Part shown: positions 1 to 38,356 of the stretch, piece after piece
Layout of the letters: every line of letters begins with the position of its first letter
Position numbering within the stretch: position 1 is the stretch's first letter
IMG/VR virus record: IMGVR_UViG_3300013286_000012
Span: 12,546 to 76,545 of that record
DNA from: a virus
DNA: 64,000 nucleotides
Strand: one strand, 5' to 3'
Made by a program: the position numbers and the translations under genes
The notes under the pieces: generated by a model
What the model was told of the DNA's origin: nothing
The model's input: the letters and a program-made list of their open reading frames with translations, nothing else
Database searches by the model: none

Positions 1-338
1 CAATTAATTCTCGTTGATAAATAACTGCAATATGCATGCACTCAACGACAACTAAGTTACTTCGAAACGTTAATGAAAATTAATCGTGAATAGTGTGGGG
101 CTAGTGAGATTCATGGAATGCAATCAATATCAATTATGGAATGCCAATAATTACATCACGCCTTATGTGTTGCTACTTATTGGTGCAGTCAGTAATCAAT
201 CTGTACGACAGAACATTGACGTTGATATTGAATGCATAGTGATTCTGCTTATGTATTTTCTGCGGTTGCAACTAACACTCATTCAGCGAAATGGCATTGG
301 TTGCAATCGTGGTGAACACATAAACGAAAGGCAACACA

Positions 339-5729: not shown

Positions 5730-6139
5730 GCCAATTAAAAGAATGCAAAGAATGCAAAGAAGTGAAGTTACTTGAACACTTCGACATCACCAGAAAAAAG
5801 TTACTTGCAATCTGTAAGCCATGCAGACGGCAACGAAATCGTAATTACTACCTCACTCGCAAAATCGATATCAAGAAATGGCTCTTCGATTATCTGTCGC
5901 AGAACCCTTGTATCGACTGCGGTGAAAGTGACCCGATGCGACTTCAACTCGACCACAGGGGCGATAAAGAGTTCGTTATTGGTAAGTCACTCGTTGGTAA
6001 GAGTAAATCTCTTGCAGACGTGCAAGCAGAAATCGCAAAGTGCGATGTGCGATGCGCGAACTGTCATCAAGTAAAAACTCATGGTGAACAGAACACTTGG
6101 AAATATCAAATGAATCTAGAAAGGAAACACCATGAATAA
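5726..6139 (+). CDS. HNH endonuclease with N-terminal Zn ribbon
   Basis: CKEC..CKPC; CIDCGESD..LQLDH..CDVRCANCH. Confidence 0.85.
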   Translation: MSQLKECKECKEVKLLEHFDITRKKLLAICKPCRRQRNRNYYLTRKIDIKKWLFDYLSQNPCIDCGESDPMRLQLDHRGDKEFVIGKSLVGKSKSLADVQAEIAKCDVRCANCHQVKTHGEQNTWKYQMNLERKHHE

Positions 6140-7404: not shown

Positions 7405-7734
7405 ATGAATAAACATCAAGATGATTTAATTAAATCAATCGACTTTGCCAACGAATTTATGAAGGTAGTTCGTGGATTCAAAGTCGAACACGACCGACCT
7501 GACGGCTTGCCACAGGACGTTAAAGAACATCTTGCCAATCAACATCTCAACACCTTTATTGCAGAACGCAATCTAGAGCCAGAGATGCTCATCTGGGGAA
7601 TGCTCCACATGATTGAAATTTTATTGGAGTATTGTGATTTAGAACCAGAAAATTTAATGTCTGTCATGGATACATTCGTACAACACATTAAAGATAACTC
7701 AGAGATATATGGAGATAAAGATGAGAATGACTAG
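7405..7734 (+). CDS. hypothetical protein
   Basis: GGGAG RBS before ATG 7405. Confidence 0.65.
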   Translation: MNKHQDDLIKSIDFANEFMKVVRGFKVEHDRPDGLPQDVKEHLANQHLNTFIAERNLEPEMLIWGMLHMIEILLEYCDLEPENLMSVMDTFVQHIKDNSEIYGDKDEND

Positions 7735-8029
7735 ACCAAAGAAGGCACTATCTGTCGGATTCGAATTGACAACAGAGCGACCCGATATCGTTGATGCACC
7801 ATGTCAATCAGTTGACCCAGAGACGTTCTTTCCAGACCCAACAGACCTTGCGTTAACTCGTGAAGCAAAGTTGCTATGCAAACAATGTAATGTAAAAATT
7901 AAAAAAGATTGTCTCACATTTGCGCTTATCAACAAGATTGGTTACGGGATATGGGGTGGACTTACTACAGATGAAAGAAGAAACTTTAAACGTAGGGAGC
8001 AGAGAAGTGAAAGTAAGAATTCGCTATGA
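7721..8029 (+). CDS. whiB: WhiB family transcription factor
   Basis: C..DPETFFP..C..C..C with GIWGGLT turn motif. Confidence 0.92.
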   Translation: MRMTRPKKALSVGFELTTERPDIVDAPCQSVDPETFFPDPTDLALTREAKLLCKQCNVKIKKDCLTFALINKIGYGIWGGLTTDERRNFKRREQRSESKNSL

Positions 8030-8217
8030 CAGATTGGCTAACAAGTACAGACATCGCAAATCAAATCGGAGTAAAGGTTCGCACGATATACAAGTATCGA
8101 GAGCGCGACACCCTTCCAACCCACGATGCCATGATTGGCAACAGACCAGTATGGAAGCAGACAACAATCGACGAATGGATAGTAAATCGTGATTCAAATG
8201 AATTGGAGATTCAGTAA
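8026..8217 (+). CDS. AlpA/excisionase-like HTH protein
   Basis: LTSTDIANQIGVKVRTIYKY..LP....IGNRPVW...IDEW; upstream of recombinase. Confidence 0.8.
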   Translation: MTDWLTSTDIANQIGVKVRTIYKYRERDTLPTHDAMIGNRPVWKQTTIDEWIVNRDSNELEIQ

Positions 8218-8365
8218 TGGCAATAAAAATTAGAGACTGCGTGGAATGTGCAGACCAGCATTACACCAAAGATATGTATCCACATGAGGGTGCATATATC
8301 TGCGAACAATGCTTTCACGATACTTTTAAGTTCGAAAAATCTGATGAATTGGAGATTCAGTAATG
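8198..8365 (+). repeat. 22-bp direct repeat ATGAATTGGAGATTCAGTAATG at 8198-8219 and 8344-8365
   Basis: exact match read from sequence. Confidence 0.9.
8217..8363 (+). CDS. small CxxC-CxxC protein (48 aa), not in ORF track
   Basis: TAATG coupling; CVEC...CEQC. Confidence 0.6.
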   Translation: MAIKIRDCVECADQHYTKDMYPHEGAYICEQCFHDTFKFEKSDELEIQ

Positions 8366-8467
8366 AATAAAATAACTGTCGAAGTAAATGATGAATGGTT
8401 AGAGTTTCTTGGAGAGATGAGTCGTGACAACAACGGATTCGTCTGGTTGAAAGTTGAACGAAAGTAA
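8363..8467 (+). CDS. small hypothetical protein (34 aa), not in ORF track
   Basis: GGAG RBS, TAATG coupling. Confidence 0.5.
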   Translation: MNKITVEVNDEWLEFLGEMSRDNNGFVWLKVERK

Positions 8468-8561
8468 CTACGTCCAAATTCTTGGACGATATAAAAAGTT
8501 ACTTCAAATTACATAAGCAGAATCAAATCTCGCTAGGTGTATCTAGTCTCATTATGTGGAC

Positions 8562-8590
8562 ACCCCAGATTTCGGTCTGGGGTTTTTTTT
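8562..8590 (+). terminator. intrinsic terminator ending early block
   Basis: ACCCCAGAT-TTCG-GTCTGGGGT plus T-run. Confidence 0.85.
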
Positions 8591-8599
8591 GACTTCTAA

Positions 8600-8630
8600 G
8601 TTACTGGTCAGTAACCTACTGATGAGTAAC
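8600..8630. promoter_or_regulatory. palindromic sites upstream of recombinase (candidate att/res core or operator)
   Basis: GTTACTG-GT-CAGTAAC followed by degenerate copy CTACTGATGAGTAAC. Confidence 0.5.
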
Positions 8631-8653
8631 ATGGCACAGATTGGGGGTGGCAG

Positions 8654-9931
8654 ATGTACGTTGTAGAGCGAAATGGTCGGTGGACTGGCTATTACAGGCA
8701 GGGCGGTAAACGCCTCTCTGCTGGCACATGGGCAACAAAAGTGGAAGCCGAATATCACGCCATGCAAGCAGGGGTATCGGGCGTTACAGAGCCTTCCAGA
8801 GCCGTATTTACCCTATCCGAATATCTAGAGGGCTGGTTCAAGAGTGCAGACCTCATGCCGATTACGCTTAAGGGCTATGAATCGGTTCTGAGAAGATTCG
8901 TCATGCCCGAATTAGGAGCACAGAAAGTAACTGCCATCTCAGTTCGCCAGATTTCAGAGTTACTTGCTCGCTTGCGGGCGCAGGGGGTCGGTAGCGCGAC
9001 TGTGGCGCAGGTGAAGGCATCACTAGGGTCAGCCCTATCTCGGCTCGTGGAGACTGGTGAACTGCCTGTGAACCCCACCAGAGGCATTAGGGTGAAGCAG
9101 AAGCACGCAGATATCCAGAATGTGCTTGAACCAGAAGAATTCAAAGAGATACTCAATAACTTACCAACACATGGGGCAAAGTTACTTGCCCAGTTCCTAG
9201 TGGTATCGGGTTGCAGATTTGGTGAAGCGACCGAGATGAGGGTCAAAGATATCAATTTCAAGAGTGGCGAGATATATGTCCAGAGGCGAGTGAGTGATTT
9301 GGGAGCAAGCCATACCAGTAGGTTCATGGTCATTGATGCCACAAAGTCAGGTCATAAGAGAAGCCTCACCATAAGCAAAGCCCTACTACTAGAGATTCAG
9401 GGCTATGTCACAGCAAAAGCCCTACGAAAAGATGACTTGCTGTTCTCAAGGTTACTGGTAGGTGAACAGACTAAAATAAAGAGTTCTCGTAGCACAAAGC
9501 CTTCTCGACCATTCGAGAAGGACGGAAAAAAGTTCCAGCATGGAACGCTGTACGCCTACACGCATGGCAGATGCAGATGTGAGGCTTGCTTAGGGTCGGT
9601 GCGAAAGCACAGGCAGAAAGCAAAGCCATACCAGAAGCCAAAGCCATACCAGAAGCAACATCGGTTCATCGACCAAACGAGTCACCTGCCACGAGATGTA
9701 TGGAGAACAATCTGGAACAAAGCAATAGATAAGTCCGCAATCGGTTGGAGTCCAAGAACCCATGACCTTCGGCACGCTAACGCTACCCACCTTCTAAAAA
9801 GTGGGGTAGATGTGCATGAGGTCAAGGAACGTCTAGGTCACCAGTCGATTAAGACGACAGAGCGATACTTACATCGCCTTCGTCACAACCAGTCAAAGGC
9901 ATCAGAAAGTGCCAGCGACTTTTTGGAGTGA
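8654..9931 (+). CDS. int: tyrosine recombinase/integrase with internal Zn-binding insertion
   Basis: GCRFGE (R), HDLRH, LGH, TTERY catalytic set; N-terminal arm-binding-like and core-binding regions. Confidence 0.93.
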   Translation: MYVVERNGRWTGYYRQGGKRLSAGTWATKVEAEYHAMQAGVSGVTEPSRAVFTLSEYLEGWFKSADLMPITLKGYESVLRRFVMPELGAQKVTAISVRQISELLARLRAQGVGSATVAQVKASLGSALSRLVETGELPVNPTRGIRVKQKHADIQNVLEPEEFKEILNNLPTHGAKLLAQFLVVSGCRFGEATEMRVKDINFKSGEIYVQRRVSDLGASHTSRFMVIDATKSGHKRSLTISKALLLEIQGYVTAKALRKDDLLFSRLLVGEQTKIKSSRSTKPSRPFEKDGKKFQHGTLYAYTHGRCRCEACLGSVRKHRQKAKPYQKPKPYQKQHRFIDQTSHLPRDVWRTIWNKAIDKSAIGWSPRTHDLRHANATHLLKSGVDVHEVKERLGHQSIKTTERYLHRLRHNQSKASESASDFLE

Positions 9932-10485
9932 TGATGAAACATCTACATAAGAATAAAGCAGTTGTAATTTGGGCTATAGGAGTTCTAGTGGTTGGTTTAC
10001 AGGTTGCTGGCAGTCATACTGCCGAAGCCTTGAAAGCCATACCACAAGCCCAATCACAACTATCAGAGAAAGCATTGCGTGTTAAGACCCTTGATAAGTT
10101 CCACAACGCTGACAGCCTCACCAAGACAGACTTGATGCAGTTACTTTCAGCCGTGGGATTCAAAAACAAAGCCTTACAAGAAGCATGGGCAATCGCAATG
10201 AAGGAATCTAAAGGCAATCCTCTCTCCCATAACGGAAACCGAAAGACTGGGGATAACTCTTACGGGTTATTCCAAGTCAACATGATTGGTTCAATGGGTC
10301 AAGAGCGTAGGGATAAGTTCAATTTGGATTACAACGCCAAATTGCTTGACCCTGTGGTTAATGCTCAAGTTGCTTATCACATGAGCAACGGAGGCAAGGA
10401 CTGGAGTGCATGGAAGGGAACAAAAACACCAGTAGTAAAGAGCCTCATGGCTCAGTTCCCAGACAAAGCAAAAGCAAAGCCATAG
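9928..10485 (+). CDS. lytic transglycosylase (SLT/lysozyme-like) with N-terminal signal/anchor
   Basis: AIAMKES, SYGLFQVNM, DPVVNA..AY..S.GG.DW..W. Confidence 0.85.
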   Translation: MMMKHLHKNKAVVIWAIGVLVVGLQVAGSHTAEALKAIPQAQSQLSEKALRVKTLDKFHNADSLTKTDLMQLLSAVGFKNKALQEAWAIAMKESKGNPLSHNGNRKTGDNSYGLFQVNMIGSMGQERRDKFNLDYNAKLLDPVVNAQVAYHMSNGGKDWSAWKGTKTPVVKSLMAQFPDKAKAKP

Positions 10486-10506
10486 CAAAAGCATAGGCAT
10501 ACGGGA

Positions 10507-10530
10507 AGCCCCCCTAGCAATAGGGGGGTT
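10507..10530 (+). terminator. hairpin/terminator
   Basis: CCCCCCTA-GCAA-TAGGGGGG. Confidence 0.65.
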
Positions 10531-10552
10531 ATCTCCCAGAGAAGGAGCGCAG

Positions 10553-10993
10553 ATGGACGGTAAAAACTACTTAAAATTAGCAGAGCAGTATGAAAAGCAA
10601 AGCAACAAGTCATACCAGAAGCAATACCAGAAGCCCAAACAACAGCACGAGCAACATCACAAGCAGACGCTAGGTAATGATTACAGTAAGAAGGTTGAAG
10701 AGTTACCTCTCATTGCTGAAGAAATAGATGCCTTCTTTTGGGGCAAATTAGTTCAACTTGGTTGGCGCATTGACAGCACACCACTTGAAACTTTAAATTC
10801 AACCGCCAAAATTACTCGGTTTATTTATGTATGCCCAGATTGTGATATGCCTCTTCACTTTGAAGGCTCATTACAAATAACTCCAACTAAAGCCAAGAAG
10901 ATGTGTGATGTTAGTTTGTTACAAGAAAAGTTAGTTAGACATCAAACCATAGCCAAAGATTGCAAAGCCATACCAGAAGAGGAAGCAGAATGA
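10553..10993 (+). CDS. hypothetical protein
   Basis: AAGGAG RBS; CPDC motif. Confidence 0.65.
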   Translation: MDGKNYLKLAEQYEKQSNKSYQKQYQKPKQQHEQHHKQTLGNDYSKKVEELPLIAEEIDAFFWGKLVQLGWRIDSTPLETLNSTAKITRFIYVCPDCDMPLHFEGSLQITPTKAKKMCDVSLLQEKLVRHQTIAKDCKAIPEEEAE

Positions 10994-11100
10994 AGTGCTA
11001 CGTAAAAGGTTGTCTAGAAGAAGTTAAATGGATAATTTTTATAGATGGCTCAACAGCGTGCGATGAACACGCCCCAGGAGATTACTCAACAGAACTCTAG
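10990..11100 (+). CDS. small hypothetical protein (36 aa), not in ORF track
   Basis: ATGA overlap, GAGG RBS, C..C..CDEH. Confidence 0.45.
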   Translation: MKCYVKGCLEEVKWIIFIDGSTACDEHAPGDYSTEL

Positions 11101-11109
11101 CAAAAGCAA

Positions 11110-11133
11110 AAGCCCCACCAAAAGGTGAGGCTT
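11110..11133. terminator. terminator at convergent strand switch
   Basis: AAGCCCCACC-AAAA-GGTGAGGCTT flanked by A-rich tract. Confidence 0.65.
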
Positions 11134-11156
11134 AAGCCAAAGCAATACCAGAAGCG

Positions 11157-13196
11157 TTACTGGTTATCTTTAATTAACCGTACTTCGCAAGCATCAGTGG
11201 TGCAGTAAGCCTCACCAATAGCATCAGCAGCCATTCCAGCATAGACACCAGTTAAATCAATAGGGAACAACTTCATAACTCCATCGTTCTCATATTCTTC
11301 GGCAGTAATCTGTGTGTACGGCATCTGTGGGTAAACAGCATTACCAGAAGGTAAGAATGAAACAGTCTTAAGTTGACCGTCATACATATGCAAAGCCGTA
11401 CCAATAGCCGAAGCCTCTGTTGTTGGGTCAAAAGAAATAGTTACGGAGACAGAGTTGTCTGACCAGTAGCGTTGAGCGGTAGCAGCGAGTGCCATCTTCT
11501 CGTAGATACTGACATCCTTCTCACTGCGCTTTGCTTCTGACTTGATAGGGAAGAAGACAACGCTAGTCGTATCAGGAGATTCGCTTGCTGGTTCTACTCT
11601 GTAGTTTGCCAACTTAAAGAGTGGCAGCATCGGGTCAGAGTTAGCAAAACGAATTGCACGGTTGAAGTACTCACCGCCAACAGTCCAGTGAACTCCAGGG
11701 CTCTCGCCTGCAAGAATACTTACTGTGCCTGATGGTTTAACAGTTGTCATCTTGATGGATTCACGGATACCAAGCCACTCAGAGTACGAGGTGTCATACG
11801 CCTTGATGGTCTTATATCCCTCGTCCATCCATGTGCGAAGAATTGGAAGACCACGGTTATCTGCAAAGTTTGCTACCCCTGATACAGATGTACCGATGCG
11901 ACGATTACGCTGCATGATTGCATTTGTTTCTTCCCAATGAGTTGGAAGGAGAGTCACTGTCTTTGCATACAGGTATGCAAACTTTAATGTGCGCTTAAAA
12001 TCATCTAAATCTTTGTGACGGTTTAAATACGTCTCAACCAACGTACAGCACTCATACGATTCAAGTGATTGCTCAGCACACGGGTTGTAACCAGAAATGC
12101 GCCAATCCCTGTTGTTGATTGGGTCAGAAAGTCGACCATATTGCTTTGAGATATCCATCCAAATAACTCCAGGCTCACCGTTGTGCGCAATGCCTTCAAT
12201 AATGTTATCTAAGTTGTCACCTACATTAACAGCCACAGAATTATTTGACATCCATGCCCAGCCTGGACTTGCTGGATTGTAAGAGTTTCTTTCTGGAAAT
12301 TTATCTGCGTTCTTTAAATTAAGAAACTCTTGGTCATCTATGCGACCAATTAGTAACTCTGCAGAACGACGTACATTGCCAGAAACAACGCATACGCCGA
12401 TAAGATTGCCAATATCAGCAATGTCGATTCGAGTAAGTTTTTGCCCACCGCGACCAGCAAAGATTTGAATGATGTAGTTGTGGAGTTTGATAAGAGGTTC
12501 GGGCCCTGCTGCTGTTCCGCCAAAAGTGCGAATATGCTCCCCTGCTTTGCGTATTTTCGAATAGTCAAAGACAGGAGTTTTCGTGTCTGGCTTGAGGTAG
12601 GCGTTAATGAGAAGTGCTGTTGATTCGACCCACCCCTCTCTGGTATCTGGAATGACATACGCTTCTCCTTGTTGTGGGTCGTAAATAGTGAAGTCTTTAT
12701 CCGCACCCCTATCGTCAAATCCTACTCCAACACCCAGCATGGATGCCTCCATGAGGAAAGCAAACGGTTTGGCTGGCTCAACCTTATTCATGGAGCCAGT
12801 TGATACAAAAGCACAGTTCTGCAGCGCTGCCGAGTTACGCTCCTTATTTACGATGGCTGTACCCATCACCCAGAGTCCACGACCTGGGGGTGTCCACTTC
12901 AATTCAAAAAGGCGGTCAAAGGCTTCCTTGGCAGAGGAGGCTGCCTTGGCATCAGACCATGGCAGGCGGTTAGTCTTGGCGTGGTCTTTCTGTAGTGAGT
13001 ACATTCCGTTAATGACTCTCTCGCATACGTCTGTCCACGTCTCCTTAGTACCATCTTCCTTAATACGTGAATAGGTTCTGAGAAAAGTAATCTCTCCTAC
13101 TGAATTTCCTGCTGCATCTCTGTATCCGAATGGTGCAGTCTTGCTTCTGTATGGCGCCACAAAATCTTCGGCTAACTTAAATGAGAATAATGACAT
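11157..13196 (-). CDS. nrdJ: class II (adenosylcobalamin-dependent) ribonucleotide reductase
   Basis: PPGRGLW, LQNC, GNVRRSA, NPCAEQ, TTVKPSGTVS, C-terminal CxxxxC; no beta subunit gene nearby. Confidence 0.93.
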   Translation of the reverse strand: MSLFSFKLAEDFVAPYRSKTAPFGYRDAAGNSVGEITFLRTYSRIKEDGTKETWTDVCERVINGMYSLQKDHAKTNRLPWSDAKAASSAKEAFDRLFELKWTPPGRGLWVMGTAIVNKERNSAALQNCAFVSTGSMNKVEPAKPFAFLMEASMLGVGVGFDDRGADKDFTIYDPQQGEAYVIPDTREGWVESTALLINAYLKPDTKTPVFDYSKIRKAGEHIRTFGGTAAGPEPLIKLHNYIIQIFAGRGGQKLTRIDIADIGNLIGVCVVSGNVRRSAELLIGRIDDQEFLNLKNADKFPERNSYNPASPGWAWMSNNSVAVNVGDNLDNIIEGIAHNGEPGVIWMDISKQYGRLSDPINNRDWRISGYNPCAEQSLESYECCTLVETYLNRHKDLDDFKRTLKFAYLYAKTVTLLPTHWEETNAIMQRNRRIGTSVSGVANFADNRGLPILRTWMDEGYKTIKAYDTSYSEWLGIRESIKMTTVKPSGTVSILAGESPGVHWTVGGEYFNRAIRFANSDPMLPLFKLANYRVEPASESPDTTSVVFFPIKSEAKRSEKDVSIYEKMALAATAQRYWSDNSVSVTISFDPTTEASAIGTALHMYDGQLKTVSFLPSGNAVYPQMPYTQITAEEYENDGVMKLFPIDLTGVYAGMAADAIGEAYCTTDACEVRLIKDNQ

Positions 13197-13320
13197 AACC
13201 CCTACCATTTCTATAAATTTGCAAATACCCCTCAGTGGGTTGCTTAGTATTACGCTTGGAACCCTATCAGGTATATGTTAATAAGGTGAAGTACTAAAGC
13301 CAAACTTGAGGGGCTAAACT

Positions 13321-13378: not shown

Positions 13379-14881
13379 TTATTTTTCAATAGACTCGGAA
13401 ATAATCTTGGTAACAGTCTCTTCTCGAAGCGTTTCTGGTAATTCTTTTAGCGCTTGAGCACGGTCTCCAAAGATGGCAGAAAGCACTCCACCAGAAGATT
13501 GTCGTTGCGCTGTAATCTGAATGAACTCCTTATTGGTATCCATGTCCTTAACTTGACCAACCAATTTATACAGTCTATCGATTTCTTGCGAGAGGTTAGG
13601 GTCTGCATAACCTCCATTCATTTCTTCTGCAAAACGCATAAAAGCCACTCTTTGACCCTGCATTTCAATGATTGCAGTAAGCAAAGATTTTAATTGCTCT
13701 TTAGTTTTAACTTCAATAGGAAGGTTAAACGCACACATATTGTCTGGTTTAAATGCTGGGCAATTGCTTGCAACAAAACAGGTGTTGCATTGTCGAAGAG
13801 AAGATTGTTGGTTATTGATGACTGGAACATCTTGCAAAATGTCTTTGCCGTTTTCATCTTGTTCAACTATCGTCTTCATCTTTACGCCAAAAACAGGAAG
13901 GTTCTGTATTTCTTCGGGGTCTCTTGGAACTACTTTATTGGGCTCTTGTTTCCGCACTGGCACGTCACTGTTATCAGAAGCGGGAGTTTCAAATCCCATT
14001 AAACCTGTTAAGAAGGTATCGCTATTATCAGGTAAGTTCTCACCTTTACCACCTTCAATAATATGAAAATCAGGTGTCTTCTTATCCATTGATGTCTCCA
14101 ACTGTTGGTATGACCAGACGGCAACTCTAGTCGCTTCAAGGGTACTATCTTGCACGAAGTCTAAATAGTTTAATCCAGCCTTCTCCACCATAGCCTTATA
14201 ACGGGGTCGTGCTTGGTCTTTCATTTTCTTTGGATAGCGGTTTAATTTGGTGCCATCCCAAACGATAGTCTCGCCTCGTCTCATGGGTGAAAGCCAAGAC
14301 AATGTACTGGCTGTACTAAATGGTATCTGTCTTAAATTGTCTGGCTTAGCACATCCAAGAGCATGGAACTGGGTCTTATATTGTCTGGAGTAACTTCGAG
14401 TTACGGCCGCCAAGTTAGTTACTGACTCAATCTCGTCATTAGGGATAGCCACATTCTTGTGGTCTTCGCACATCTTTCGGAGTGTTTGTTGTCCATATTC
14501 TTCATGCCAGATAACCCACAGTTTGGGGTCGTTATTGAAGAAGAAGCGCTGCTGCTCTATCCATTCATAGCCCAAAATTATTGAGTCAAATTCTAAAAAG
14601 GCTGTGGCTCGGTTTGCATTGTTGACAAGAAATTCTTGATAGTCGGCGGCTAAATCAATAAGTTCTTGTTTTGACAGCCCAGCCTTTTCAGCCTGTGGAG
14701 CGCCTGATTCAATGAAAACCTTAGTCTCTGCATCAAAGTGTTCGCTTATAAGCCAATTTTTAGTTTTAGGTAAGCCACGTTTACGGAGCCCCCAGTAGTT
14801 AAGCCCCATCGACTCAACTTTTAGTTTTTCGAGAAGGGTTCTGTTAGAGCCAACTTCAACTCCAGAAAAGATGAGATTCAT
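13379..14881 (-). CDS. TGT/DpdA-like TIM-barrel protein (degenerate) fused to Cys-rich C-terminal domain
   Basis: FIESGA (cf. DSG), FHALG, PFSTASTLSW (cf. SxDS(T/S)SW); CNTC..CP..C. Confidence 0.55.
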   Translation of the reverse strand: MNLIFSGVEVGSNRTLLEKLKVESMGLNYWGLRKRGLPKTKNWLISEHFDAETKVFIESGAPQAEKAGLSKQELIDLAADYQEFLVNNANRATAFLEFDSIILGYEWIEQQRFFFNNDPKLWVIWHEEYGQQTLRKMCEDHKNVAIPNDEIESVTNLAAVTRSYSRQYKTQFHALGCAKPDNLRQIPFSTASTLSWLSPMRRGETIVWDGTKLNRYPKKMKDQARPRYKAMVEKAGLNYLDFVQDSTLEATRVAVWSYQQLETSMDKKTPDFHIIEGGKGENLPDNSDTFLTGLMGFETPASDNSDVPVRKQEPNKVVPRDPEEIQNLPVFGVKMKTIVEQDENGKDILQDVPVINNQQSSLRQCNTCFVASNCPAFKPDNMCAFNLPIEVKTKEQLKSLLTAIIEMQGQRVAFMRFAEEMNGGYADPNLSQEIDRLYKLVGQVKDMDTNKEFIQITAQRQSSGGVLSAIFGDRAQALKELPETLREETVTKIISESIEK

Positions 14882-15369
14882 TAATCTTGCCAAAATTCTA
14901 ACGATTTAGGACTAGCAGCATCTTTGGATTTAGCAACGTTAACTCTATCAATAGCATTTTCAATATCAGTCCATTTGCGTACCTTGCTAGGTGCATCAGG
15001 GCGACGCTCTACGGCAAGATAGCCTGGGTTCATAAACATGATGGTAGGAACACCTTGCTCTTCAAATACCCATGCACACATGGATGGGTCAGAGTCAACG
15101 TAGAGTTCTACTGGAGCCTTACTACGACTTATAATGAATTGACGTTTCTTTAAATCTTCACCTTCAAGGTGGTAAGACGTGTCAATCAATTCATCATAGT
15201 TAATGATTCCGTGAGAGTGAAGCCAGTGTTTTGCATCCTCTGTATTGCGGGACGTTATGATTGCCACACGATTATTAATATTAAGGGCATAATAAAGCAT
15301 TACTCCTGCACGGATAGGTTCCCCTGTATCCGAACTTAATACGCCATCTAGTGATACGAGTACGTTCAT
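14881..15369 (-). CDS. HAD-fold phosphatase-like protein
   Basis: LVSLDGVL, IITSR, LYVDSD; first catalytic Asp replaced by Ser. Confidence 0.6.
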   Translation of the reverse strand: MNVLVSLDGVLSSDTGEPIRAGVMLYYALNINNRVAIITSRNTEDAKHWLHSHGIINYDELIDTSYHLEGEDLKKRQFIISRSKAPVELYVDSDPSMCAWVFEEQGVPTIMFMNPGYLAVERRPDAPSKVRKWTDIENAIDRVNVAKSKDAASPKSLEFWQD

Positions 15370-37276: not shown

Positions 37277-37391
37277 TGTTAGTTGCCCCTAATTCTTCTT
37301 TGACGATATTACGAATATCTTCTTTTGTTATTTGACATCCGCATTGGCTGCCACATTGACAAGAGGAACCTGTCATCTCTACTGGAATCAT
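37269..37391 (-). CDS. small Cys-rich peptide (40 aa, ...CQCGSQCGCQ...), not in ORF track
   Basis: ATGA overlap with upstream stop, GGAG RBS; fills gap. Confidence 0.5.
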   Translation of the reverse strand: MIPVEMTGSSCQCGSQCGCQITKEDIRNIVKEELGATNNG

Positions 37392-38356
37392 TTACTTGCT
37401 CCTAATCGTTTTTCATAGCGCTCTAATTGTGCACGACCAGAGAGCGAGTTCTGGAACACACGACCATCGCTGGCTGTGAGAATGCCTGTCTTTATGGAAG
37501 TCTCCACTGGTGCATTGATTTTTGTCAAACCAAGGTTGGCTCGCGCTTGATTCATCTTCTTGCCAAAAGAAGCGAGGTACTTCTTGTAAAGGAAGGGTGC
37601 CTCATCGCCAATCTGTTCAAAGTTCCTTTCATCCGCAATAAAAAGACGAAGCAACTCTAATTCAATTAAGGCTGTGGTGTTGTATTGCCCTCTGAATTTT
37701 GCAAGGGCTCCTGATAGCGATTTGACGTTGACGGTACCTGGAAGTAGCGGGTATAAGCGGCCCACCTGATAACTAAACTCTGCAGCGACGTCCATCGGCG
37801 TCCACTCATGTTCTGGTCGCTTTCCACGGGTCTTGGGGTCGGACTTTTTAATCCGTGGCTGCTTTGCCTCTTTTGGTTCGACAAGTCCGAATCCTGCGAG
37901 TTCATCTCCATCATCTTCCCATTTTCTCATAGGTACCTTTATTTCTTTGAGGAAATCCTTTTCCTCAATATCTTTTAATTTATAACTATCTTGGCTATTA
38001 GGTACTAATGGCTTATCTACTATTTGGCTACGTGACTTATAGCCATGTGAGGTGCGGTAATTCTCAGTGCGGTAATTTTCAGCATCAGTGCGGTAATTTT
38101 TGACAACCTCGTACCAGTCCATTCCCTTAAAACCATTGGCTCTCCTGCTCTGGCTGCGAGTAAGAAAGCCGCCCTCTTCCAAGGCTTTGAGGGCCGTTCT
38201 GACAGTTCGGTCAGAAGTTTTGCCAGTCTTTGTACCCAACTCGGCTACGGATGTCTTAAAACGCCCTCCAGAGCCTTGTAGATGGCATATGGTGGCGAGC
38301 AGTCGGAACTGATAATCGGTTAGTTGAGAGGTATACGCCTCAGCAGGGATTTTCAC
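37388..38356 (-). CDS. replication initiator with N-terminal winged HTH (lambda O-like)
   Basis: SVAELG....SDRTVRTALKALEEGGFL; internal repeats; upstream of DnaC-like and DnaB. Confidence 0.75.
   Translation of the reverse strand: MKIPAEAYTSQLTDYQFRLLATICHLQGSGGRFKTSVAELGTKTGKTSDRTVRTALKALEEGGFLTRSQSRRANGFKGMDWYEVVKNYRTDAENYRTENYRTSHGYKSRSQIVDKPLVPNSQDSYKLKDIEEKDFLKEIKVPMRKWEDDGDELAGFGLVEPKEAKQPRIKKSDPKTRGKRPEHEWTPMDVAAEFSYQVGRLYPLLPGTVNVKSLSGALAKFRGQYNTTALIELELLRLFIADERNFEQIGDEAPFLYKKYLASFGKKMNQARANLGLTKINAPVETSIKTGILTASDGRVFQNSLSGRAQLERYEKRLGASK
38052..38098. repeat. three iteron-like repeats GTGCGGTAATT (candidate origin)
   Basis: copies at 38052, 38067, 38088 next to AT-rich tract near 37965-38030. 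Confidence 0.75.

Follow-up and report, generated by a model that had tools for sequence, protein, structure and literature searches.

A polar, frame-independent repeat array in the integrase operon of large uncultured freshwater phages

A repeat array confined to the integrase operon

The window analysed here comprises 64,000 nucleotides (bases 12546-76545) of a 76.5-kb virus record in IMG/VR (IMGVR_UViG_3300013286_000012), which is classed as linear and ~76% complete, with 24% of the genome absent. Between the middle of its tyrosine integrase gene (int, encoding Int) and the stop codon of a convergent class II ribonucleotide reductase (RNR) gene, this window carries an array of short direct repeats that all lie on one strand and are read in different frames by the genes they cross. 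Nearly all of ~100 related loci, whose integrases are 43-96% identical to that of the window, bear the same kind of array in the same place, and on the basis of these comparisons the array looks like a conserved, strand-specific and frame-independent cis-acting signal.

The most regular form of the repeat is the 16-mer AAGCMATACCAGAAGC, seven copies of which occur with at most one mismatch within 9623-11155, all on the + strand. Four are exact (9623, 9641, 10619 and 11140) and three carry one mismatch (10034, 10607 and 10965). A first-pass annotation of this DNA had reported seven copies in a single orientation, and each was located exactly where it had been placed. When up to three mismatches were allowed, 17 matches were found against 1.17 expected, a number attained by none of 100 shuffles, and 13 of the 17 fall on the + strand at 9307-11408. 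The earlier impression that the motif is found nowhere else in the window was borne out and extends to the whole record, which holds no further copy at one mismatch or fewer, no reverse-complement copy and no match to a reversed-pattern control. We note that loose counts of this kind are inflated by coincidental look-alikes in the RNR gene, where A-I-G-x-A peptides recur in the C-terminal region (11207-11222 and 11393-11408) and the opposite strand mimics the motif (AAGCC..ACCAATAGC). The weak RNR copies at 11207, 11336 and 11393 were considered as a right arm of the array and rejected, being the antisense of conserved RNR peptides and ignoring the clade-specific variant of the motif.

Followed along the + strand, the array opens with weak copies inside int (9307-9392), namely 9307 (two mismatches, in the third frame), 9361 and 9378, the first of which is invariant in clade A. 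Cluster I (9605-9662) occupies the tract encoding the Int linker and contains the exact copies 9623-9638 and 9641-9656, read as KPYQKPKPYQK. In the next gene, which encodes a secreted SLT_3 lysozyme-like protein (SLT), a single copy (10034-10049, read as KAIPQA) encodes the linker after the signal/transmembrane segment and is followed by a weak copy with two mismatches (10169-10184) and by cluster II (10461-10502), a hexamer-phased tract at the SLT 3' end that includes the copy 10477-10492 and has the SLT stop codon TAG (10483-10485) within one of its units. A further tract (10589-10640, with the copies at 10607 and 10619) encodes the N-terminal low-complexity part of a small open reading frame (ORF), ORF146, and is very indel-prone among relatives, and a single copy at the ORF146 C-terminus (10965-10980, read as KAIPEE) lies just 5' of the ribosome-binding site and start of a 36-aa ORF (10990-11100). 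The last exact copy (11140-11155) is intergenic and ends 1 nt before the convergent RNR stop codon (11157-11159); the word GTTACTGGT that comes after it was considered as a core site and rejected, since it consists of the final RNR codons. Of the degenerate relatives of the motif claimed earlier, those at 9361-9392, 9412-9435 and 10461-10502 are present, and the part at 11099-11110 turned out to be the opposite-strand T-tail of a hairpin at 11110-11133.

The repeat is read in three frames

The integrase that hosts cluster I is a protein of 425 aa (8654-9931, + strand; Pfam Phage_integrase and SAM_3, PHROG integrase), in which three parts can be distinguished: a three-strand-plus-helix domain at the N-terminus, a Cys-rich insertion, and the disordered linker that the repeats encode. 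Within the window, the copies at 9623, 9641, 10607 and 10619 are read from codon position 1 (K-x-Y-Q-K), those at 10034 and 10965 from position 2, and that at 11140 is intergenic, just as the first-pass annotation had stated. At the homologous Int linker the reading frame of the repeat varies with the clade, all three being used to give KPYQK, EALAEA or xSxSxS (x-Ser repeats). This linker (residues 326-339) has a predicted local distance difference test score (pLDDT) below 50 in an AlphaFold2 model of Int, and the remaining coding copies likewise lie in linkers, tails or low-complexity segments. Because one and the same disordered linker is read in three frames, the constraint is on the nucleic acid, in agreement with the earlier proposal that selection acts on DNA or RNA rather than on protein and that the array is polar and local.

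The basic period of the array is 6 nt, with AGC recurring every 6 nt, and a 12-nt super-unit of the type AAGC-NN-TA-N-CA-R is built upon it; the 16-mer of the window is the best-homogenised 12-nt super-unit together with the start of the following unit. In the 70 nt before the hairpin that follows SLT, AGC-AGC lags of 6, 12 and 18 nt were counted 71, 64 and 48 times over 20 diverse loci, every other lag occurring at most 12 times. The 6-nt phase is kept along this tract, much of which is non-coding. Units differ between clades (ATACCAG in the clade of the window, ATAGCAG in another, TTAGCAA or ATAGCAA in others) around a near-constant AAGC..TA.CA.AAGC. Spacing (12 or 18 nt) and copy number (one, two or more) vary even among relatives whose Int is 91-96% identical to that of the window, and some clades have ~20 contiguous hexamers in the Int linker. 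At motif position 9, which is C or G, the linker copies and the non-coding downstream copies of one genome largely agree, and a single common reader is therefore suggested. Clades that use frame 1 have TAC where others have TAG, a stop in that frame, and their non-coding copies mostly also carry C; in the Int tree, the clade with the G variant branches from within those with C. This distribution points to partial concerted evolution of the motif variant, with few independent switches.

Conservation and turnover among relatives

Loci were fetched for 33 Int relatives 60-96% identical to the Int of the window, and ~100 more were fetched via two distant homologues (Int 43-75% identical in a sample of these loci); the database contains 754 Int homologues at E ≤1e-20. 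The gene order Int-SLT-variable cargo-convergent RNR-TGT, the last being a tRNA-ribosyltransferase-like gene, is kept throughout the fetched loci, and an Xis homologue lies 5' of int in most of them, none being detected in some clades. In all close relatives the motif has the orientation of int, extends from the middle of that gene to the convergent junction and never occurs in the 6-kb flanks. A relaxed pattern applied to 98 loci (~1 Mb) gave 441 forward and 6 reverse matches, the forward ones being divided between the Int linker (225), the 1.7 kb 3' of int (209) and 751 kb of other sequence (7). Likewise, the density of AAGC-N8-AAGC is close to zero outside +500..+3250 from the int start and has three peaks, one in the Int linker, one at the 3' end of SLT and one where the operon ends, and the reverse pattern is absent from that zone. 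Three complete relatives (94.7, 99.9 and 100.3 kb) have the array at this locus only. The motif scan of these genomes and of the record thus shows confinement to one locus rather than the even genome-wide scatter that the first-pass annotation had thought would speak against a functional array. An exact-motif scan of IMG/VR returned mostly single chance matches, and the few contigs with multiple matches proved to be Int relatives.

The array is conserved as a whole, and individual copies turn over. For example, the 10034 copy is identical in 7 of 8 clade-A loci despite variable flanks, and the 10965 copy is kept in 6 of 8 though the sequence upstream of it diverges; in one relative (L127) the region of the 10034 copy has been remodelled and a new copy stands beside the indel. 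RNR is 79-92% identical in relatives where Int drops to 43-96%, which indicates a mosaic boundary at the junction. The SLT-to-RNR interval (10486-11156 in the window) is a hypervariable cargo slot of 0.1-2.4 kb that is filled by different small Cys-rich ORFs or by extra leftward genes, as at positions 7935-10270 of locus L144 and 7863-7943 of locus L201.

Promoter, hairpins and limits of the array

The array-bearing transcription unit starts at the promoter/operator region of the int operon (8584-8653, + strand), which comes after a strong terminator (8562-8583) and contains a -35-like TTGACT and two palindromic operators, TTACT-N4-AGTAA. This architecture is kept upstream of int in most relatives, with two to three tandem operators (e.g., positions 5880-6000 of locus L145). 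In clade C the operators have changed symmetrically to CTACT-N4-AGTAG, as expected of a dimeric repressor with altered specificity; no repressor gene was identified.

Cluster II merges directly into a conserved hairpin (10503-10535, + strand), the 5' arm of which is the last repeat-like unit (..GAAGCCCC..). Folded sequence by sequence, the post-SLT hairpins of 20 loci have free energies (dG) of -18 to -26 kcal/mol; loop indels in the MAFFT alignment left RNAalifold without an informative result. The stem sequence differs by clade with pairing kept, and a canonical U-tail is present in some clades. At the operon end, degenerate units (11099-11133) run into the hairpin 11110-11133, the intrinsic terminator of the RNR operon on the - strand, whose T-tail reads as GCAAAAGC units on the + strand and whose stem-mismatch position shifts in two relatives (L127 and L132). 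Among relatives, too, the final copy lies directly against the stop codon of the convergent gene, whether this is RNR or, in L144, a 93-aa ORF. With its start after the int promoter and its end at the first convergent stop codon, the array matches a single transcription unit.

Genomic context

The genes of the array belong to a rightward block made up of a MoxR/CobS-like ATPase and an HNH endonuclease, WhiB (7709-8029), a 63-aa HTH_17 Xis-like protein upstream of int (8026-8217), int, SLT (9928-10485), ORF146 (10553-10993) and the 36-aa ORF. The convergent RNR gene (11157-13208, - strand) bounds the array and heads a long leftward block in which RNR and a TGT/DpdA-like gene are followed by UvsX-like, PolA, helicase, primase, DnaB and replication initiator genes and then by baseplate, sheath and fibre genes; the primase, helicases and polymerase are found at 27-36 kb of the window and the replication initiator-like gene at 37388-38356. 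Among the annotated ORFs of the record we saw no terminase gene, no ParA/ParM/TubZ-type partition gene and, in a record that is ~76% complete, no recognisable repressor. Judging from its genes, the record belongs to a large tailed phage with an actinobacterial host, and such hosts are proposed for the array-bearing phages because their WhiB genes and actinophage-type integrases point there. The nearest integrases of cultured phages are those of Corynebacterium, Mycobacterium and Gordonia phages, at less than 30% identity, and the cultured-phage collection gave no match at the DNA level.

Other features of this region were observed in passing. The 504-aa protein encoded next to RNR (13379-14893) has no Pfam match and matches the phage queuine tRNA-ribosyltransferase (DpdA/TGT-like) family; its gene, which is kept in all relatives, may serve in DNA base modification. 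At 8198-8219 and 8344-8365 there is a perfect 22-bp direct repeat, its copies 146 bp apart, each covering the final codons (..ELEIQ*) of a small gene and the overlapping start of the next, with a 48-aa CxxC..CxxC protein encoded between them. The catalytic domain of Int contains an insertion (9467-9620, residues ~272-322) in which H296, T298, Y302, G305, C307, R308, C309 and C312 are invariant among 40 homologues; it is likely a metal-binding module, the confidence of the model being only moderate there.

Candidate functions of the array

The explanation that we tentatively favour, and hold even so with low confidence only, is a sense-strand binding platform, probably acting at the RNA level, that would govern formation of the post-SLT hairpin, read-through into the variable cargo and the fate of the int-SLT mRNA. 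It is favoured because the array coincides with one transcription unit, is found on the sense strand only, keeps a 6-nt phase, is blind to reading frame and finishes with the 5' arm of a conserved hairpin. A 6-nt phase would be expected of contacts along a single strand rather than of one-helical-turn spacing on duplex DNA, and the keeping or replacement of single copies when their flanks change gives further support. In such a mechanism the 16-mer would be the most regular local form of a hexamer-phased repeat that runs along the sense strand through the last two-thirds of the int-SLT unit, and an oligomerising, sequence-specific factor would occupy many of these sites, most plausibly on the transcript. 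Formation of the post-SLT hairpin would depend on binding beside or over its 5' arm and at the operon end, and would in turn set 3'-end formation, read-through into the cargo and int-SLT mRNA stability, amounting to a retroregulation-like control of the integrase. We infer each of these steps, from reading as RNA rather than DNA to the binding of a protein and the effect of that binding.

Known systems offer partial parallels. As in the (G/U)AG tracts bound by TRAP in the Bacillus trp leader, a trinucleotide recurs every 5-6 nt on the sense strand just upstream of, or overlapping, a terminator-forming sequence, which is what the AGC lags and the 5' arm of the post-SLT hairpin display here. Unlike TRAP tracts, however, the array also extends deep inside ORFs, and the resemblance is one of functional analogy only; we know of no TRAP-like gene in actinobacteria or in this phage. 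Like sib of lambda int, the array is a cis element 3' of int at the end of the transcript that could set the fate of int mRNA, but sib is a single RNase III hairpin, whereas a multi-copy single-stranded repeat is combined with hairpins here. More doubtful still is the broader proposal of a hexamer-phased single-strand code, tolerated in all three frames and common to an abundant uncultured lineage of freshwater actinophages, that would be read by an oligomeric factor coupling integrase expression to terminator formation or mRNA decay.

Several observations weigh against an RNA-level platform. No candidate RNA-binding protein turned up, no systematic search having been made, and an Rfam search gave no match. 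The positional invariance of the copies is only modest (0.69 inside the motif, 0.70 outside), and conservation at synonymous positions, the lack of which in relatives the first-pass annotation would have counted against the array, holds at third codon positions of int (0.86 inside the motif vs 0.67 outside) and SLT (0.83 vs 0.57) and fails in ORF146, where invariance is lower inside the motif (0.14 vs 0.29). The switches of motif variant that would reveal a common reader are few. The arm-binding-like N-terminal domain of Int, which is confidently modelled, would need DNA sites somewhere, and tandem direct-repeat pairs are also typical of arm-type sites. Moreover, duplex-DNA binders of short contiguous repeats exist, and a 6-nt phase is compatible with reading as DNA. 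Two other RNA-level roles were considered and rejected: a Rho utilisation (rut) site, the excess of C over G being judged too small by eye and without computation, and an antisense-RNA target, there being no reverse-complement copy in the record.

Among the functions listed by the first-pass annotation, recombinase arm sites and stoperator-like sites survive as alternatives, while packaging, replication-terminus and partition sites found no support. The main rival, which we regard as rather unlikely, is that the repeats are duplex-DNA sites for the arm-binding N-terminal domain of Int, serving as extended attP arm sites, as sites at which Int represses or road-blocks its own operon, or as both. 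The array is always linked to int, even in relatives whose fetched flanks yielded no Xis or WhiB homologue. In the AlphaFold2 model, residues 1-42 of Int form three strands (2-6, 9-16 and 19-26) and a helix (29-42) with a pLDDT of 83-89, so that the protein appears to have the separate N-terminal arm-binding-like domain of a heterobivalent tyrosine integrase; the top fold matches of the model are full-length lambda Int, and residues 6-39 have a weak AP2 match under the Pfam cut-off. R6, R9, T11 and Y13 of this domain are invariant across 40 homologues, paralleling the invariant core of the motif. Adjacent direct-repeat pairs occur as in published arm sites, and a CATAC/ATACC core that the motif has in common with published arm consensus sequences, such as TGCATAC.. 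of Cluster J phages (PMC3706429) and TGKTGGTATC of ICEMlSymR7A (PMC11963761), can be taken as a lead only. In the latter element, Int bound at attP is reported to repress intS (PMC11963761).

The likeness to the arm-type sites of lambda (P/P'), mycobacteriophage L5, Cluster J phages and ICEMlSymR7A (P1-P5) thus lies in short, asymmetric and often paired direct repeats adjoining int. The geometry, however, differs. The array spans ~1.8-2.1 kb, against 240-420 bp in characterised attP sites, and in the window 7-13 sites are spread over 1.5-2.1 kb where a compact attP would have a few sites in ~0.2-0.5 kb. Its copies share one orientation with none inverted, form runs of up to ~20 contiguous linker hexamers in 6-nt phase, and lie inside three ORFs in any frame; none occurs beyond the convergent stop codon, so that the junction is not flanked on both sides. 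The hairpins between clusters vary in stem sequence and provide no fixed core, no core was identified within the array, and none shared with an attB could be named, host data being absent. Searches for a prophage or attB came up empty: scanning 185,579 species genomes and JGI metagenome contigs with peptide patterns gave only free-phage configurations or unrelated integrases, HMMER returned nothing from 401 sampled genomes of the phylum to which a hit genome belongs, and BLAST of the int-upstream region against the same 401 genomes gave matches at chance level only. A tRNA-like core was also rejected, since ARAGORN predicted no tRNA, T-arm pattern matches were at chance level and the non-coding stretches between clusters held no T-arm-like match. 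Classical attP arm sites are accordingly a possible but geometrically atypical identity for the array.

A second family of sequences, consisting of AGTTACT words and the palindromes of the int promoter, has a more canonical attP or operator geometry, being concentrated at -200..+600 from the int start in both orientations, and this too tells against the array as the arm region. AGTTACT words occur at ~-150, +270, +300 and +525 from the int start, in both orientations, and in relatives AGTTACT/AGTAACT are concentrated at the same 5' end of int. The near-palindromic 9-mer AAGTTACTT is over-represented in the window (57 matches vs 27.7 expected at one mismatch or fewer), with positions at 54, 2504, 3991, 5765, 5798, 8496, 9179, 16406, 29242 and 45630 and with exact copies mostly in the rightward block. 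It is possible that AAGTTACTT/AGTTACT represents a family of operator, arm or core sites distinct from the repeat array.

We consider it unlikely that the array is a polar roadblock on duplex DNA, comparable to stoperators, or a filament site for a monomeric or head-to-tail repressor or for a winged-helix protein of the recombination directionality factor (RDF) type, silencing the int operon or blocking antisense read-in. The motif is asymmetric and ~12-16 bp long, every copy has the same orientation relative to transcription, the last copy immediately adjoins the convergent stop codon, and the HTH_17 Xis-like gene is located upstream. Elongation, not initiation, is the step on which stoperators act, and those of Cluster A mycobacteriophages (for the L5 gp71-type repressor) resemble the repeats as asymmetric ~13-bp sites oriented with transcription in actinophages. 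Asymmetry and linkage of orientation to transcription are documented for stoperators (PMC9283540), and MerR-like/RDF winged-helix proteins such as BldC and RdfS bind direct repeats head-to-tail (PMC11963761). Stoperators are, however, 20-36 single sites dispersed over the whole genome, whereas the sites here are tandem and lie within a single 2.5-kb unit, occupying one ~2-kb zone in the record and in the three complete relatives. Clades with the longest arrays (L201, L214 and L225) have no Xis or WhiB homologue detected upstream, and no cognate repressor gene was identified.

The absence of any function appears distinctly unlikely. In that case the array would be a slippage-prone hexa- or dodecanucleotide microsatellite that is tolerated in disordered linkers, in protein tails and beside terminators, with slippage and gene conversion keeping its units alike. 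Variation of copy number and spacing between near-identical relatives, the turnover of individual copies, the position of the tracts in low-complexity or disordered protein segments and the resemblance of the units to the A-tract and stem start of ordinary terminators would all fit such an origin. Against it, the three clusters persist down to 43% Int identity though neighbouring non-coding sequences look unrelated between clades, and the bias of forward over reverse matches speaks against a microsatellite. The remainder of the 95-100-kb genomes, though similar in strand composition, lacks the array, and other terminators are without such tracts. Isolated copies matching at up to 16 of 16 positions (11140) occur in non-coding DNA, others with one mismatch occur in other genes and other frames, and the copy lost in L127 was replaced nearby.

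Recombination hot spots, either Chi-like or recognised by a recombinase, that promote the exchange or loss of small cargo genes between SLT and RNR are a very unlikely explanation. They would fit the hypervariability of that interval, the absence of the 36-aa ORF from two relatives (L156 and L127) with breakpoints adjoining repeat units, the 1.85-kb insert that starts right after the last copy in L144 and the UvsX-like recombinase encoded by the phage. On the other hand, other cassette junctions are at hairpins rather than at repeat units, the clusters in int and at the SLT N-terminus flank no cassette, and recombination between direct copies would delete the catalytic half of Int.

A packaging (pac/cos) site, origin iterons, a replication terminus or a plasmid-partition centromere is extremely improbable. 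Such elements do consist of direct-repeat arrays, bound cooperatively and in some cases with several clusters flanking genes, and the contiguous or clustered short repeats of P1 incC/incA, ParR-parC, TubR-tubC (12-bp repeats) and the omega heptads are similar to those seen here, but the array has no linked initiator or partition gene, lies inside unrelated ORFs and accompanies int in every relative. No terminase gene is present among the annotated ORFs, and in two relatives whose records carry direct terminal repeats, 34-40 kb separate the array from the ends; the replication module is >15 kb and the initiator-like gene >25 kb away. The GC-skew check suggested by the first-pass annotation does place the peak of cumulative skew at the strand switch, where the array lies, but the skew simply follows the direction of transcription.

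Implications for the phage lineage

The array belongs to none of the families with which it was compared and is best seen as a variant of repeat-array signals already known. Its carriers are a large lineage of freshwater actinobacterial phages seen only in metagenomes, with complete genomes of ~95-100 kb, and they look lytic yet keep an intact integrase. A cis-acting signal that overrides protein coding within the integrase gene itself offers a direct handle on how the integrase is used or controlled in these phages, and the reading of one homologous site in three frames is a clean natural case of constraint on nucleic acid. The array also provides a simple diagnostic mark for this phage group. 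If the arm-binding domain of Int is the reader, the accepted architecture of attP would be stretched; if an RNA-binding factor is the reader, the array would represent a new form of int retroregulation.

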